From contig CAVSHT010000011.1 in NCBI GenBank assembly GCA_963727895.1, forward strand, positions 64,001 to 128,000: a DNA stretch of 64,000 bases. The letters run 5' to 3'. Shown here one piece after another: positions 33,600 to 42,328 of this stretch. Made by a program: the position numbers and the translations under genes. Source of the stretch: an uncultured Methanosarcinaceae archaeon (GTDB lineage Archaea > Halobacteriota > Methanosarcinia > Methanosarcinales > Methanosarcinaceae). The notes under the pieces are model-generated. The model saw only the letters and a list, made by a program, of their open reading frames with translations. It was not told the DNA's origin and searched no databases. The stretch's first letter is position 1; each line of letters begins with the position of its first letter.

Positions 33600-34955
33600 T
33601 CAGGCACCTCCAACAAGAGCTTTTGATACAGCGAGGTGAGGAGAACCATCAGATACAGAAACAAGTTGTCCTGCTTTTCCACATCTGCCTGCAGTCATTT
33701 TCAGGTCTTTACCCACAAGAGCCACATGATTGAGAATCTCAAGAGTTTTGCCAGAGAGAGAAACATCCCTTATAAGTTCGGTGAGTTCTCCATTCCTTAT
33801 CAGATACCCTTTTTCGGCATTGAACTGGAAAATCCCTTCTCCGGTATTCACCTGTCCTCCTCTGGACCCTATGAGATACATCCCATCTTTTACTTCTTCA
33901 AGCATTTCTTCAAACTTAGCATCCCCATTATCTATGAAAGTATTGCTCATCCTGACAACGGGCATGGAATATCCCTGAGCCCTGCAGTTTCCGGGAGTTC
34001 CTCCAAGTTTCGCTGCAGTTTCCCTTGAGTGCAGATAAGAATTAAAGACTCCGTTTTTGATTATTTCTGTCTTTCTTGATTGCGACCCTTCAGCATCAAA
34101 AGGATAGTATCCGAATTCATGTAGAGTAGGATCATCAATAATAGTAACGAGGGGTGATGCAATCTGTTCTCCTATCCTGTTCTCAAGAATAGAATCTCCT
34201 TCGAGAACGAGATCAGCTTCCGAAGCATGTCCAACAGCTTCATGGGCAAAGACACCAGCCAGTTCTTGATCAAGAATCACAGGCATTTCTCCACCCTTTG
34301 GAGTTTTCGCATTAAGGAGTTCAACTGCGGAATTTCCTGCCTTATTTCCGAGTTCCAGAACATTTTCTTTCTCAAAAAGCTCGTATCCGTACCCAAAACG
34401 ACTTTCTCTTCCTGCCTGATATATATCATTCTCCGAAGCGACTGCAGAGACTGCAAAACCGACGTTCAGAAGTTCATAAGCACATTCAATACCATCGGAA
34501 CTCCTGTATTCAACTTTAAACTCAGATTCCAGGTACATTACTCTGGTACTGCTGACACCTTTTACTTTTGCATTGGTTTCGATACTCTTTAAAAGGTCGA
34601 CTTTTTCCTCAATAGGCACATCTCTTGGGTCAATTTTGATTTCAGGAAGATTCTTTACTTCTGGATTATTTATAATCGCAATTTCTACGTCTTCCTTGGG
34701 GGTATTGGCATTCATAGAAAAAGCAAGTTTTGAAGCAGCCTCAACACCTTTTTTGAGATCTATATCTCCTTCTACAGAAGTATAGCCCCAGGAACCTCCA
34801 CAAAGAGCCCTTAAACCAGCTCCCTTTGTAAAGTTTCTGGATATTTCTTCAATCTTTCCGTTATCCAGGATAATAGAGGATGAACTACCCTCAATTACCC
34901 TGCAGTCATAAAATTTAATATCCTGCATAATGCCTGTCATGATTAATTCCTGCAC
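33600..34955 (-). CDS. tldD: TldD metalloprotease
   Basis: HEAVGHASEAD, RMSNT and G.CGK.GQ motifs. Confidence 0.92.
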   Translation of the reverse strand: MQELIMTGIMQDIKFYDCRVIEGSSSSIILDNGKIEEISRNFTKGAGLRALCGGSWGYTSVEGDIDLKKGVEAASKLAFSMNANTPKEDVEIAIINNPEVKNLPEIKIDPRDVPIEEKVDLLKSIETNAKVKGVSSTRVMYLESEFKVEYRSSDGIECAYELLNVGFAVSAVASENDIYQAGRESRFGYGYELFEKENVLELGNKAGNSAVELLNAKTPKGGEMPVILDQELAGVFAHEAVGHASEADLVLEGDSILENRIGEQIASPLVTIIDDPTLHEFGYYPFDAEGSQSRKTEIIKNGVFNSYLHSRETAAKLGGTPGNCRAQGYSMPVVRMSNTFIDNGDAKFEEMLEEVKDGMYLIGSRGGQVNTGEGIFQFNAEKGYLIRNGELTELIRDVSLSGKTLEILNHVALVGKDLKMTAGRCGKAGQLVSVSDGSPHLAVSKALVGGA

Positions 34956-37039
34956 CCAAAAAGATTCTTAGCCTGTACGGAATTGGGTGAAACCTCAGGA
35001 ATATCGAAGTTGAGCTTTGCAAGGTTTCGGAGTTTTTCAATAATAGAGTTCTTTCTTGGACCCACAAGGCTGTGTTCCATTACTTCCGCAATAGAGGAGA
35101 CAGGAATGATCTGAATTTTTTCCCTATATGCCTTTTCGATAAGGACATCTGCCTCGTTTGCCTTCGGGATAATGACTTTCTTAATTCCGGCCCGAGCTGC
35201 AGCCTCGATTTTATAGGTAACTCCGCCTACAGGCAGAACATCTCCCCGGACTGAAAGGGACCCTGTCATTGCCACGGTCTGATCCACAGGAATCTTTTCG
35301 ATGGCAGATATGACAGCTGTTGCAATGGAAACCGATGCACTGTCTCCTTCGACACCTTCATAGGTCCCCACAAACTGGATATGGACGTCATGTCTGGATA
35401 TGTCCGTACCTGTCATGTTCTTAATTACTGCAGAGACATTTAGCACTGCTTCCTTTGCAATCGTTTTAAGCTTACCTGTTGCTATAATACGCCCTTCGGA
35501 TCCGGAAAGTGCCGGGGTGACTTCGGATACTATAGGAAGTACAATTCCGGAATCTCCACCCATGACTGCAAGCCCGTTGACCCTACCCACAGCAGAACCA
35601 TCTTTTATGAAGGATTCATATTCCTTACGATGATCCAGGTAATTGTCTGCGAGCTGCTGTTCGATAGACCTTGCAATCTTCTTTGCTGCAAGTACATGTT
35701 CTGCAGTTGTGACTGAAGCGCCTTCGGAATGGGCAACGTCTCCTGCCACGCGTACAAGTCCACCAAGGTCACGAAGCTTCAGGGTAAGGTGTCCTTTTCT
35801 ACCTGCCCTTCTTCTGGCTTCCCTGATAACTTCTTCTACTGCGTTTTCATCAAAGTGAGGAATATGTCCATCTCTAACAACTTCCTGGGCAACAAAACGA
35901 ACCATTTTCTTACGGTTTTCAGGAGTATCTTCCATGGAATCCTGCATGTAGACTTCGTAACCATAACCCTTTATTCTGGACCTGAGTGCAGGATGCATTT
36001 TCTGCACAGCATCAAGGTTTCCTGCAGAAACCATAATAAAGTCACAAGGTACTGGCTCAGTTTTTACAAGTGCACCTGAACTTCTCTCAGACTGTCCAGT
36101 AATTGGATATTCCTTTTCCTGGAGAGCGGTCAGAAGACTCTGCTGAGACTCCAATCTGAGGGTATTGATTTCGTCAATAAAGAGCACACCTTTGTGGGCC
36201 TTGTGAATGTCTCCAGCTTCTACTCTGTCATGAGCAGGAGTCTCAAGTCCACCTGACTGGAATGGGTCGTGCCTTACATCCCCAAGCAGAGCTCCGGCAT
36301 GAGCTCCAGTTGCATCGATGTAGGGTGCGTGTTCTTTGTCATAATTTGAAACCGCCAATTTTGGAATCATCATTTCTTCTTTCGGCAAGAACTGGCGCGT
36401 TAACATGAGAATCATAATGCCTGCGATAATACCCCAGAGCAATTGACCAACAAAATAAGAGTAGATGACAATAGCCACAACAAAAAGCATCATGAGCATA
36501 TTTCTGGCCTGGGCTTTCTTCCTGGCCTCCATCTTGTGAGCCATGACGATTTCTCTACCCTTTCCTGCAGGAACCTCCCTTATTTTAGGGTTGTTCAGGT
36601 CTTCCATATTAGGATAGACGAGAATATCTTTAAGCTCTTCTTTAGGAAGAAGTTCTGCCATTGCTTTTGCAAGTAGAGATTTTCCTGTTCCGGGAGTTCC
36701 TATCATCATGATGTGCCGTCTCTGGCCAGCCGCTTTTTTTACTACTTCTACGGCATGCTCCTGACCCAGCACCTGGTCAATAAGAAGTTTGGGTACATCT
36801 ATATTAGAAGTATCTTCAAAAGAGAAGCCGATGTCAACATCATCGTCATCCGTGTCGCGATTGGACTCAGACTCGGCCATTTGATTGGATTCAGGCCCAG
36901 TCATACCCCTACTGGACTCGTCCTTCTCCTGATCGGCCGTAGACTTGTCTACTTCTTGGATTGACTCATCTGTATTTTGAACAGGTTCGTCTATCTTCCC
37001 AGCAGACACGTCTATGTTCTGATTATTATTATATACCAT
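34943..37039 (-). CDS. lonB: Membrane-anchored ATP-dependent protease LonB
   Basis: GTPGTGKS, TM hairpin inside the AAA domain, FIDEI, catalytic GDSAS and Lys in GGVTYK. Confidence 0.96.
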   Translation of the reverse strand: MVYNNNQNIDVSAGKIDEPVQNTDESIQEVDKSTADQEKDESSRGMTGPESNQMAESESNRDTDDDDVDIGFSFEDTSNIDVPKLLIDQVLGQEHAVEVVKKAAGQRRHIMMIGTPGTGKSLLAKAMAELLPKEELKDILVYPNMEDLNNPKIREVPAGKGREIVMAHKMEARKKAQARNMLMMLFVVAIVIYSYFVGQLLWGIIAGIMILMLTRQFLPKEEMMIPKLAVSNYDKEHAPYIDATGAHAGALLGDVRHDPFQSGGLETPAHDRVEAGDIHKAHKGVLFIDEINTLRLESQQSLLTALQEKEYPITGQSERSSGALVKTEPVPCDFIMVSAGNLDAVQKMHPALRSRIKGYGYEVYMQDSMEDTPENRKKMVRFVAQEVVRDGHIPHFDENAVEEVIREARRRAGRKGHLTLKLRDLGGLVRVAGDVAHSEGASVTTAEHVLAAKKIARSIEQQLADNYLDHRKEYESFIKDGSAVGRVNGLAVMGGDSGIVLPIVSEVTPALSGSEGRIIATGKLKTIAKEAVLNVSAVIKNMTGTDISRHDVHIQFVGTYEGVEGDSASVSIATAVISAIEKIPVDQTVAMTGSLSVRGDVLPVGGVTYKIEAAARAGIKKVIIPKANEADVLIEKAYREKIQIIPVSSIAEVMEHSLVGPRKNSIIEKLRNLAKLNFDIPEVSPNSVQAKNLFGCRN

Positions 37040-37909: not shown

Positions 37910-38791
37910 ATGGCCAGAAGTAAGGTAAGAAATATTCTCCTTTTGAAGCAAATACACAGCGCAGTGTCCCAGATCAAGAAAGGTAACCTGGATAAAGCTC
38001 TTGAAACCTTAAAAAAAGCTGAAGATTCAGCAAGGAAAGCAAAAGCTACTGATGCCGTATATTATATTCTTTTTATGCGCGGAGGCATCTATTATACTGA
38101 GGCAAAATATGATGAAGCCCTCGAAACCTACGAAAAAGCGCTTGATGCAGGTTCAGAACTCCTTAAAACCAACCCTGAAAATACCGATTACCATCACTAC
38201 ATGGGCACAACCCTGAGTAATACAGGAAATCTTCTCAAAAGTAAAGGCAAAAAGCCGGAAGCTGTCGAATACTATATCCGTGCCCGTGAAATCTATGTAA
38301 ACCTCCTGGCAAAGGAACCTGAAAATGTAGTTTTCCGATCCGCTGCCGGCGAGAACCTGAATAACTATGCAGCTTTCCTTATGGACATGGGATCTTTTGA
38401 AGAAGCATGTGAAGTTCTCAAACAGGCGATTGAGCTTTATGAAAAGCTTCTCGAGGAAAAACCCGACAACCCCGGCTATCAGGCTGAACTCTCAGAGACA
38501 CTCAGCCAGCTCGGAAACTGCCTCATAAAACAGGGCTCAGAAAACTATGATACCGCAAAACAGAGCCTTGAAAGAGCCCTCAATATGCAGGAAAATATTA
38601 TCTCCCAGCAGCCAAACGATAAGAATATTAAAGAATCCATTGCTTTAACCCGAGAAAGACTCGAAAAATTGGAAGAGCTAGAAAAGTCGAAAAAGCTGGA
38701 AGAACATGAAGAATCAGAAAAACTGGAAGAGCTGGAAGAAATAGAAAAATCAGAAAAACTAGAAAAAACAGAAAAGCTGGAAAAACTTTGA
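37910..38791 (+). CDS. TPR protein with C-terminal EKLE low-complexity tail
   Basis: TPR motifs (A...YEKAL, TLSN.GNLL, LNNYA). Confidence 0.88.
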   Translation: MARSKVRNILLLKQIHSAVSQIKKGNLDKALETLKKAEDSARKAKATDAVYYILFMRGGIYYTEAKYDEALETYEKALDAGSELLKTNPENTDYHHYMGTTLSNTGNLLKSKGKKPEAVEYYIRAREIYVNLLAKEPENVVFRSAAGENLNNYAAFLMDMGSFEEACEVLKQAIELYEKLLEEKPDNPGYQAELSETLSQLGNCLIKQGSENYDTAKQSLERALNMQENIISQQPNDKNIKESIALTRERLEKLEELEKSKKLEEHEESEKLEELEEIEKSEKLEKTEKLEKL

Positions 38792-38807
38792 GTTAGAGGT
38801 TATTAAG

Positions 38808-39044
38808 TTAGAGATTATCTTTTGAAAAGAGCAGCATGTGTAGATAAAGTAAAATCAGCAGACCTGCAACGATCCCAGAGACGAACTGGAAAGTAAAGTA
38901 TGAATAAATGACCAGCACAAGCACAAAGAGGGTAATAAGAATGTTTGCAAGCCTTACTTTCCTTTTTATTTCAGGATCTTGCGGAGTCCCAGCTTCTTCT
39001 TCATCAAGATTACATTCCCTGAAGTAACTTCTTTCTCTTTTCAT
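38808..39044 (-). CDS. 78-aa two-TM protein homologous to the LonB membrane hairpin
   Basis: 21/48 ungapped identities to LonB residues 171-218 by hand alignment. Confidence 0.75.
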   Translation of the reverse strand: MKRERSYFRECNLDEEEAGTPQDPEIKRKVRLANILITLFVLVLVIYSYFTFQFVSGIVAGLLILLYLHMLLFSKDNL

Positions 39045-39530
39045 TAGGAAATAAAGCCTCAGAATAAGAATATCAATAACTATACCCCAAAAAAGCTGAC
39101 CTATATAAAAGGTATAAAAGAGGACGGCTGCAAGAAAGATACCAACAAGTATGAGATATAGTTTCTCTCGATTTCTAATTTCAGGAATCTCGATTTTATC
39201 CTTCCCCTGAGTCTCTATTTATTATTCATATTTTATTTTCCTATTTACATTATTTACCTTTTCCTAAATACTCTTTTTAGAAGTCAACAAACATCAAATT
39301 ATTCAAAAATATCTGTTTCAAGCGGTGAATAAATAAAATAATCTAATATCTAATTCCTAAATGCTGTAATCAGCCATCTGAGTCCGAATTTGCCCACGCG
39401 CCTGCAGCGCGGCTTTTCCCAGAATGTAAAGAAAGAAAAGCAAATCATCTCTTATTCGCACACTTTTTATTACCATCTTTATCGTAAAAGATCGCAATAT
39501 TTAAGCCATCCTAAATTTATTCTTTTATTT

Positions 39531-42328
39531 ATGTCCGAGAGTTTGAGAGATTCAGCAATAAATTACTTCAATGAAGCTTTAGAGCTAATGGTAAAAAATC
39601 AGAACAAGGAAGCCTTAGAAGTACTTGAAAAAGCTGAAGAAGCTGCATACCAGACAAAAGCAAATGACATTTTTCGTTATGTTCAGAGTTTAAAAGGACA
39701 TCTACTACAAACATTAGGAGAATATGAAGAAGCCCTGAATCTCCATTCTCTTGCCATAAAAGCTGCTGAAGAGCTTTTTGTAACAGATCCTGATAACGAA
39801 TTTTATCAGTCAATTATTCAAATGAACCTTGACGAAATTATTACTCTTGGAAACTTATTCTATAACACAGGACGTTTTCTTCAAGCAAAAAATTGCTATG
39901 AACTACATCTTTTAATCTCTCAAAAACTTCTTGAAAACGACCCCGAAAACGTAGCTTACCAATCATCTGTAGCAATGACACTAAACAATTTAGGAATTTT
40001 GCTTAAAAATATGGGGCGCATTGAAGAAGCGAAACAAAGGTACGAAAAAGCACTTGAAATTTACACCGAACCTATGCAATACCTGACAATAGGTAGAAAG
40101 TCTCATTCGATAATGAAACTTGTTGAGTTAAATACAGAACAGGCAAAAAAAGGCAATCAATATGATCAAATGAAATGCCTGAAAGAAGCAATCGAGCTAT
40201 GTAAAAGAAATCAGGATTTTTTTATAAAATATGAGCTGAAGCACGAAAGAGAGCTGGTTATTGGGTCAGAATTGAGTGCATATATTAGTTTTTTGCTCAA
40301 AAACATCAGAGCTGAGCCCGATACAGGAAAACGTGCAGATGAATATGAAAAAGCTATAAAAACAGTTGAAAAGCTAAAATCTGTTGAAGAAGATGAGGCT
40401 ATTTCAAAACTCTGTGATTCTATCTCATATTACCTTTCGGGAAGAAAACTTGTAAACGAAGCGCTTTCTTCAAAGCAGCCTGACTTGGAACGACTTAAAC
40501 AGGCAATGGAACAGTTCAAGAAAGCAACTGAAACGTATGAAAAAGCAAATGTTTGCTACTGCGTCTATACCGGTCTATTTGAAGTTATGAAGGAAATTGA
40601 AAAATCTGAAGAAGTAGATATACCAAAGTTGAAAAAGGTTGTAGAAGAAGTTACCCAAACTCTATCTGATGATGTCAACCCAAACATCTGCAATTCGTTT
40701 AAGGATCTCCCGCAGATCTTTGAAGAAAAAGACTATAAAACCAGAGATAAACTTCTTTTTGATTTTTTAGAAAAAATTAACTCAATTGAATATCGACCTC
40801 TTGAAAACCTTTTTGAGTATATCCACAAAAGAACAAAGGACTATATTGAGGAACCTTTCAGCCCTAATCTTTTTTACAACAACTGGAAGCTCAGAATTAG
40901 ATTTGATGCTGAAAAAATAAAAGGTAAATTGACCATAAAAACAGCAAATACCATTCTTTTCAACCGCGCACTGAGCAAAGAAGAAATCAAAGACAATGAA
41001 ATTGAAATTGATTATCTGGAAATAAGGTATATTCCCAGCGGTGAAGATACAATTATCTTTGAAACTCAACTCAGAAACCAGTGATAAGAGATCTTGATTA
41101 CTCAGAAACAATAAGCAAAAATAAAAAAGCTCGAATCTTTTTGCACGATTGCTGTAACGGTGTCTGTACTGCAGGGGAATTGAAAGTTGCAGCTGTGCAG
41201 TTAAGATACGATGTTTATGGTGAAGACTCAGCAGTAAAAATCCTGGAAAATGAAGCATATAAAAGAAAAGTAATGGCAATTCTTGAAGCTGTGAAAGGAG
41301 AAGCTTATATTGTCGTATTCCCTGAGTTTTCTATACCATTTGACTAATACCATTTGACTATCTTGAAGATGTACAGAAATATGCAAATGAAACTGGAATA
41401 ATTGTTTTTGCTGGTACACACTACGTTACAGACGAAAATCTTGAGAAATACGAAAAACTCTTCGCTTCTGAATTTACAGAAGAAGATTTCCGAAAGAACA
41501 TCTGTCCAATTGTAATTCCAAATTCAAAAATAATACACAGTGAAAAGATGTTTGGAGCAAAAGAAGAACGCGATCTATTTTTTCACAAAGGTATGAAAGC
41601 AGGGAAAAGTTAACCATATTTTCAAACTGCGGGATAACCTTAACCTTGGAGTTCTTATCTGCTTTGAATACATTACTAACGAACTTAGACACCGCCTGAT
41701 TTCGACCTGTGATGTAATTATTGTACCTCAGACAAATCCCCGTCCTGAAAGATTCTATGGTGTTGCAAAGAACGATCTGAATAGCCCTCTTTGTGCTGGA
41801 AATAAAACGTGCATAATGGCTAATGGTATTTTCAGAATAGGAAAAATGAAAAATGGTCAGTTTGAACCGAATAAAGATAAAATTGAGGGAGGATCATCCG
41901 GAGTTCTACTAACTCTCGACAAAGATACATATAAAATGCAGGATGAAGGAATAATTTCCCATGTTAAAGATCAAAAAGAGCAGTTTATTTTGCTGGCTAC
42001 CATAGATACCCAATTTTCCGCTTCAAAAGACTTGCAAACAGGACCAGAACCAATAAAAACATAGTTCATACATATCTTTGAAGAGAATGAAATACGTCTA
42101 ATTAAGGCTGAAAACATTAAAACAGAAGATGCAGAAGAATTTTTGACTTTAATAAGGAATATCAATGATTGTAAAGATCGAAAAGAAATTAAAAATTTAA
42201 TAGAAAAAAATAGCTCCCTGATTGAGAAATACTCACCGCTTATGCATGAAAATACTGAGAACCTGAATAATCTGGATTTTGAGGAAATAAAGGAAAAATG
42301 TCGATACATCTTTATTCCGATCAGCTAA
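39531..42328 (+). pseudogene. TPR + carbon-nitrogen hydrolase (nitrilase-fold) fusion, fragmented
   Basis: TPRs, then VAAVQL, VVFPEFS, HSEKM and GVLICFEY; breaks near 41070, 41333-41360 (14-bp duplication) and about 41608, plus TAG at 42062. Confidence 0.8.

Follow-up and report, generated by a model that had tools for sequence, protein, structure and literature searches.

The gene upstream of lonB

The window, that is, the whole stretch of 64,000 nucleotides analysed here, encodes on its minus strand an archaeal membrane-bound Lon protease, LonB (34943..37039, 698 aa), recognized by the Pfam families Lon_C (3.8e-33) and LonB_AAA-LID (1.5e-7). The membrane hairpin of LonB corresponds to residues 171-218 (36386..36529, minus strand). 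A small gene on the same strand lies upstream of lonB. A TPR-repeat gene on the plus strand (37910..38791), a conserved neighbour, is placed between the two and is convergent with the small gene. Another TPR gene at 39390-41084, also on the plus strand, flanks the small gene on its other side. The TPR gene at 37910-38791 has an EKLE-rich C-terminal tail whose length varies between populations, and an 18-nt insertion is observed behind position 38743 in one contig from an RNA library.

The initial annotation described the small gene as a stand-alone microprotein that combines one LonB-type hairpin with an unrelated acidic N-terminus. An ATG-initiated open reading frame (ORF) of 78 codons plus the stop codon (38808..39044, minus strand) is indeed intact, and lonB is found 1.77 kb away on the same strand. 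The ORF does not stand alone. It is the C-terminal half of a 136-codon open frame (38811..39218, minus strand), which contains a second LonB-type hairpin upstream of M59 and which in the window has no ATG, GTG or TTG ahead of codon 59. The 78 codons comprise the inter-hairpin loop, the second hairpin and the tail of this longer frame. The acidic N-terminus, likewise, is not unrelated sequence but the conserved loop that joins the two hairpins.

All parts of the frame are on the minus strand. Hairpin 1 (residues 19-58; 39045..39164) consists, based on hydropathy, of a predicted helix TM1, a GQ turn and a predicted helix TM2, and a conserved Asp and a conserved Arg are inside TM2. The loop (residues 59-89; 38952..39044), predicted to be cytoplasmic, begins at M59 and is charged, with eight K+R and eight D+E residues and a nearly invariant motif E.EAG...DP. 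Hairpin 2 (residues 90-131; 38826..38951) contains predicted TM3, a turn and predicted TM4 with an invariant GxxxG, and it includes the portion that was originally aligned to LonB. The conserved core is the 112 codons from codon 25 to codon 136 (38811..39146). It aligns without gaps among 26 sequences with a mean column identity of 82%, and it is the form annotated in many Methanosarcina records. Codon 25 (39144..39146), probably where translation starts in the family, reads GTT in the window, GTG in 17 of the 26 genomes and TTG in three of them.

Pfam scans of both the 78-aa and the 136-aa forms detected no AAA family and no Lon_C, as the initial annotation had stated for the short form. The small protein thus carries the LonB-type transmembrane hairpin twice but neither the AAA+ nor the protease domain, and it is therefore not a LonB. 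The only Pfam matches were sub-threshold (RAMP, YmiA-like, Coa3_cc and DUF1673), and they were taken as due to chance or composition. In a protein atlas, the nearest cluster was the small-protein family itself (112 aa, 54 members, no Pfam), and the remaining matches scored 0.87 or less. Database relatives are annotated at 78, 112 and 128-178 aa, and all of them are Methanosarcina-type (51 proteins in one search and, in another, the best 120 of 208). The 78-aa products are annotated by several sources, for example in M. barkeri MS and Wiesmoor.

The distribution was examined at the family level in 121 genomes from 16 genera, including the genome of the window. The full frame was present in 26 of them: 19 of 20 genomes of the window's genus, all six of a second genus and one of two of a third genus. 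In all 26 genomes, a match to the LonB hairpin is found on the same contig and the same strand, 1.7-4.4 kb downstream of the small gene, so that the position upstream of lonB is general. The convergent TPR gene lies between the small gene and lonB in 25 of the 26 loci, with 50-81% identity. It is also present in G037, a genome of the window's genus that, like G001, apparently lacks the small gene. The contigs of these two genomes end ~0.4 kb beyond the TPR gene (G037) and ~0.35 kb beyond the lonB match (G001), and absence therefore cannot be claimed for either.

In a class-wide sample of 201 genomes from 34 genera, full-length matches were observed in 32 genomes, all in two genera; the third-genus genome comes from the family-level sample. 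The other 32 genera of the class, represented by 168 genomes, gave no match at E<=1e-12. A profile search against 1.84 billion representative proteins returned seven matches at E<=1e-3, and these were family members, their fragments and two LonB fragments. In the samples searched, the family did not extend beyond Methanosarcina and two allied genera.

The frame was extracted from the 26 genomes, and dN/dS was calculated by the Nei-Gojobori method over 325 pairs. The frame is open in all 26 genomes and aligns without gaps from about residue 14 on. The dN/dS value is 0.62 for residues 1-13 and 0.37 for residues 14-24. It drops to 0.12 for hairpin 1 (residues 25-58), 0.12 for the loop (59-89) and 0.11 for hairpin 2 (90-131), indicating purifying selection on both hairpins and on the loop. 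Thus, hairpin 1 is constrained as strongly as the part that had originally been recognized. When the copy in the window was compared with the other 25, hairpin 1 showed a dN/dS of 0.077, and it departs from the family consensus only conservatively. Judging from this constraint, the small gene is a real, conserved and lineage-specific protein-coding gene. The family unit is most likely a double hairpin with four predicted helices and a length of ~112 aa or longer, rather than a single-hairpin microprotein of 78 aa.

Descent from the LonB membrane anchor

Residues 25-72 of the 78-codon ORF align with LonB residues 171-218 without gaps, and the reported 21 identities in 48 positions were reproduced (BLASTP E 1e-12 with composition-based statistics). 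As a control for chance, Smith-Waterman scores were compared with those of 5000 composition-preserving shuffles. Hairpin 2 scores 111 against LonB, and none of the 5000 shuffles reaches this score (mean 26.1, sd 4.7, maximum 49; z 18). Hairpin 1 scores 92 against LonB, which again no shuffle out of 5000 reaches (mean 28.4, sd 5.6, maximum 55; z 11.5). Between hairpin 1 and hairpin 2 the score is 65, reached by one shuffle in 5000 (mean 30.7, sd 5.6, maximum 68; z 6.1). Each hairpin therefore resembles LonB more than it resembles the other. Such a pattern would arise if the LonB anchor, evolving slowly, has stayed close to the common ancestor.

As a control with real transmembrane segments, the entire 3.67-Mb genome was searched in all six frames. 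With the 78-aa sequence as a query, LonB was found at 6.7e-9 and the site directly upstream of the ORF, which is hairpin 1, at 1.6e-3. One further weak match (E 0.087) is full of stop codons. With the LonB hairpin as a query, nothing other than LonB itself and the two hairpins of the small gene matched at E<=10; the E-values of the two hairpins were 3.3e-9 and, for hairpin 1, 3.6e-7. The comparison of profiles with hhalign, using 26 family members and 37 LonB anchors, gave a probability of 97.9% and an E-value of 4.3e-13 over 54 columns. The shuffles, the genome-wide searches and the profile-profile comparison together indicate that the similarity is due to homology, not to composition. BLASTP, shuffles and profile-profile comparison lend good support to the proposed descent from the membrane hairpin of LonB.

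The LonB anchor is a transmembrane insertion in the AAA+ module of a protease of MEROPS family S16. Like this anchor, both hairpins of the small protein have a basic stretch before the first helix, and the match to LonB continues into this juxtamembrane stretch, E.(K/R)(K/R)K..(R).N. Also common to them are an aromatic stretch (YSYF or FYxFY), the GQ turn, and WGI followed by small residues. The small protein differs from LonB in carrying the hairpin twice in tandem, with a charged loop that LonB does not have, and in the Asp and Arg within the second helix of hairpin 1, which LonB lacks as well.

The LonB anchor is nearly invariant within the clade having the small gene. At 11 of the 48 anchor positions, LonB of this clade differs from the LonB consensus of other Methanosarcinaceae genera. 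At these 11 positions, hairpin 2 has the clade state at six and the other state at two. Four of the six shared states (F16, Y25, G37 and L48) are derived, in comparison with 12 LonB sequences of other families. The derived G37 changes G...A to G...G in LonB, creating GxxxG, and both glycines of GxxxG are invariant in hairpin 2 (G91 and G95 of the 112-aa family alignment). The mean identity of hairpin 2 is 41.5% to LonB of the clade and 32.0% to LonB of other genera. These shared clade-specific states suggest that hairpin 2 was copied from, or homogenised with, the LonB anchor after the clade had split, which fits the distribution of the small gene. For hairpin 1 the corresponding mean identities are 31.3% and 34.4%, and it retains the ancestral FY order and the Gly preceding Gln. 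Hairpin 1 is, by this comparison, either older or more diverged than hairpin 2.

Under the origin proposed here, the anchor-coding segment of the neighbouring lonB would have been duplicated in the ancestor of Methanosarcina and two allied genera. Since then, the small gene would have been held by purifying selection at a fixed place upstream of lonB.

Two other sequences join LonB parts in different ways. P0149 is a predicted protein of 86 aa in which hairpin 1 of the family runs straight into part of the LonB protease domain. The shared hairpin probably gave rise to a chimeric metagenome assembly here; less probably, P0149 is a recombinant between the two genes. A 261-codon frame in genome G062 (L048:1305-2087, minus strand), with one TAA inside the match, ends in a LonB fragment composed of the pre-anchor stretch and the anchor. 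This fragment is joined to an unrelated N-terminal membrane part, and the frame is far from lonB of that genome.

Topology and a proposed action on LonB

Hydropathy indicates two broad hydrophobic blocks, residues ~19-58 and 90-131. Each is two membrane spans long and, as in LonB, is broken by a GQ or Q turn. The catalytic side of LonB is cytosolic according to PMC9263693, which requires its anchor to return to the side of the membrane from which it entered. By homology to this anchor, the small protein is expected to have its N- and C-terminus as well as its loop in the cytoplasm. The small protein is thus predicted to have four transmembrane helices, with both ends and the 31-residue charged loop cytoplasmic.

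AlphaFold2 models the small protein with continuous helices at 2-52 and 58-107 (pLDDT 81.7), not with two-span hairpins. The isolated LonB anchor (residues 156-230; 36350-36574, minus strand) is likewise modelled as one unbroken helix of 58 residues (5-62), with a pLDDT of 84.0 overall and up to 98. As LonB's own anchor is also drawn unbroken, these models do not decide for or against the four-helix topology. The solved structure that matches LonB best, 3k1j, aligns in two stretches, of which the main one begins at query residue 220, after the anchor.

GxxxG motifs promote the packing of transmembrane helices. The reading we prefer, to which we give a probability of roughly 40%, is that the small protein packs on the LonB anchor from which it derives and tunes LonB, its acidic loop lying where the ring faces the membrane. 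The hairpins of the small protein would pack against the homologous anchor hairpins of LonB in the membrane. This packing would be a homotypic helix-helix contact through the GxxxG common to hairpin 2 and LonB of the same clade. The conserved acidic loop would thereby come to lie on the side of the LonB ring that faces the membrane, from where it could tune the assembly, localisation or substrate access of LonB. A more specific version, in which the double hairpin intercalates via GxxxG among the six anchor hairpins of the LonB hexamer and puts the acidic loop at the membrane-facing entrance of the ring, acting as a gate, pseudo-substrate or adaptor, is doubtful in this detail. A complex prediction for the LonB anchor (75 aa) with the small protein (112 aa) gave a score of 0.00 in two runs without controls, which speaks neither for nor against binding.

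Several observations weigh against docking on LonB. The small gene is not in an operon with lonB, as the convergent TPR gene separates them, and the window contains no canonical start ahead of hairpin 1. AlphaFold2 draws each hairpin as one long helix, although the same is the case for LonB's own anchor. In addition, other Methanosarcinaceae genera have LonB-type hairpins in small proteins whose genes are not linked to lonB.

These unlinked small frames with one LonB-type hairpin (YxxYIGQLLWGI) were observed at the loci L035 to L047; examples are L035:1018-1536 (minus), L036:1092-1445 (minus), L038:1120-1551 (plus) and L045:1146-1376 (minus). They are of three kinds. The first is frames of ~100-144 aa with PLDc_N (PF13396, E 1e-7 to 1e-9), one of which also passes the cut-off of DUF1673. 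The second is frames of ~170 aa with a conserved soluble C-terminal domain of ~110 aa that has no Pfam match. The third is frames of 68-88 aa that consist of the hairpin alone. In a phylum-wide sample of 151 genomes from 69 genera, LonB was present in every genome, and extra matches to the anchor profile were detected in 11 genomes, 10 of which belong to Methanosarcinaceae. The LonB-type hairpin may be a reusable membrane module without any tie to what LonB does.

The main rival reading, slightly less likely than docking, is that the small protein is independent of LonB. The hairpin would have been copied from lonB, but the protein would now be, for example, a self-associating four-helix membrane scaffold or a partner of another complex, and the proximity to lonB would be a scar of local duplication. 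The fusion of the same hairpin type to PLDc_N, to a DUF1673-type N-terminus or to the ~110-aa soluble domain in unlinked genes of other genera is consistent with such a module. So are the separate transcription unit of the small gene and the Asp and Arg conserved in hairpin 1 but missing from LonB. Against this reading, the synteny has been kept in all 26 genomes of three genera despite the opposite-strand gene in between, and hairpin 2 has kept or acquired the clade-specific states of LonB, GxxxG included.

DUF1673 (PF07895) is similar to the family in that its members, too, are small membrane proteins confined to the Methanosarcina group. Against DUF1673, some relatives in the small-protein family score 20.7-25.8 bits, below the gathering cut-off of 30.4 bits, and one true DUF1673/PLDc_N protein of another genus bears a LonB-type hairpin. 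The protein of the window has no DUF1673 match at E<=0.1, and the genome of the window has no PF07895 match at E<=1. Neither the translated 136-codon frame nor any of the 26 aligned relatives contains MGWCP, the motif named for DUF1673 in PMC4158269. With scores below the cut-off, no MGWCP and no match in its own genome, the small protein is not a DUF1673 member.

MicroProteins, a concept from plants, are small proteins that originate from a single interaction domain of a larger parent protein and act on this parent. Similarly, the small protein stems from one domain of a multidomain parent, lacks the catalytic parts and other functional domains of this parent, and is encoded next to the parent gene. 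The difference is that the copied domain is a membrane anchor and is duplicated, instead of being a soluble dimerisation domain. By analogy, the small protein would work most like a microProtein, the engagement of the parent being a prediction. In M. mazei, from the same organism group, the Mtr-bound MtrI and a small protein that inhibits ammonium transport are also small modulators of a membrane complex. In the accessible parts of the sources on them, however, neither is described as derived from its own target. No paper on the small protein or on a LonB-anchor paralogue was found, in agreement with the initial annotation, in the open-access articles that were searched.

Translation start and the product in the window

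Codon 25 is GTG or TTG in 20 of the 26 genomes. Elsewhere in the gene, GTG accounts for 19% of Val codons (35/188) and TTG for 6% of Leu codons (34/556). A further Val column also consists almost entirely of GTG, and the enrichment at codon 25 is thus suggestive of a start rather than a proof. Six genomes have neither GTG nor TTG at codon 25; five of these contain another in-frame ATG or GTG upstream, and one of the five also has TTG three codons downstream. A canonical start at or upstream of codon 25 is therefore available in 25 of the 26 genomes. M59 is ATG in 20 genomes and CTG, ATA or TTG in the remaining six. This pattern of start codons indicates that the family product is most likely 112 aa or longer.

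The single exception is the window: codon 25 (39144-39146) reads GTT, and none of the 58 codons ahead of M59 is ATG, GTG or TTG. Its genome is a draft, 84% complete and in 19 contigs. The product in the window may be the 78-aa protein from M59 or a longer form from a non-canonical codon, or codon 25 may contain a base error.

A TATA-like box ~60 nt upstream of the ORF, reported initially, does not hold as a promoter element. The string TTTTATATAG at about 39101-39110 represents the Phe-Tyr-Ile codons of hairpin 1, and TTT TAT ATA is found at this place in only two of the 26 genomes. As a conserved element, TTTTATATAG was rejected, since synonymous changes abolish the string in most relatives. 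A candidate archaeal TATA box, TAAATAAT (39249..39256, minus strand), is located inside the block GGAAAAGGTAAATAATGT, which is conserved upstream of the frame in close relatives. From its position and conservation, we infer that TAAATAAT is a better promoter candidate than TTTTATATAG. A scan for sigma-70 promoters and terminators was set aside, as it is not applicable to an archaeon.

A G-rich word, GGGGAAGG at 39200-39207 on the minus strand (AGGAGGAAG in one relative), is followed a few bases on by an in-frame ATC or ATA. The word and ATC/ATA are conserved at the nucleotide level in the window's genus, ~50 nt upstream of codon 25. The G-rich word may serve ribosome binding at a non-canonical start, or it may simply be there to encode the conserved GKGRIE stretch.

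At most 0.30 of the sampled words was present in any public sequencing run. Three metatranscriptome libraries yielded contigs that cover 38744-39207, 38926-39184 and 38762-38984; their similarity to the window is 85-97%, and they are thus derived from relatives. The contig at 38926-39184 is a single contig of 261 nt and spans both M59 and codon 25. Among the differences listed for these contigs, there is none at codon 25. They give a weak hint that transcripts include hairpin 1, as contigs of relatives from libraries that can contain DNA.

It is unlikely that the original model holds in this genome, with the start of the long form lost and only a single-hairpin protein of 78 aa made from M59, or that both isoforms are made in the family. 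The GTT at codon 25, together with the lack of a canonical start in the window, fits such a model, and so do the ATG at codon 59 in most genomes, the 78-aa products annotated by several sources and the presence of TTTTATATAG ~60 nt upstream of M59. Against such a model, hairpin 1 of the window has changed only conservatively, at a dN/dS of 0.077. A start at M59 is not available as ATG in the six genomes with CTG, ATA or TTG, the TATA-like string is not conserved, and 25 of 26 genomes can start at or upstream of codon 25. In a draft of this kind, a base error at codon 25 is also possible. That the resemblance to LonB is purely compositional, or that the ORF is a decaying remnant of a duplicated lonB, is already refuted: the segments are short and hydrophobic and yield only sub-threshold Pfam matches to unrelated membrane families, but neither the shuffles nor any other transmembrane segment of the genome match as they do, the hhalign E-value is 4.3e-13, and the frame is open in all 26 genomes at a dN/dS of ~0.11-0.12.

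The gene is currently recorded at 78, 112 or 128-178 aa depending on the record, and this annotation is inconsistent within the family. Its origin from the LonB anchor is a clear and datable example of how part of one gene has given rise to a new membrane-protein gene next to it. According to PMC9263693, most archaea have no Lon-type protease other than LonB, and in Haloferax volcanii it is essential. In the literature searched, no LonB partner acting through the membrane anchor was found. Being conserved, linked to lonB and copied from its anchor, the small protein is a concrete candidate for such a partner, and the family is present in genetically tractable Methanosarcina, such as M. barkeri. 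If the proposed action on LonB is true, the small protein would be the first trans-acting regulator known for archaeal LonB, one that evolved by copying the anchor of its target twice.
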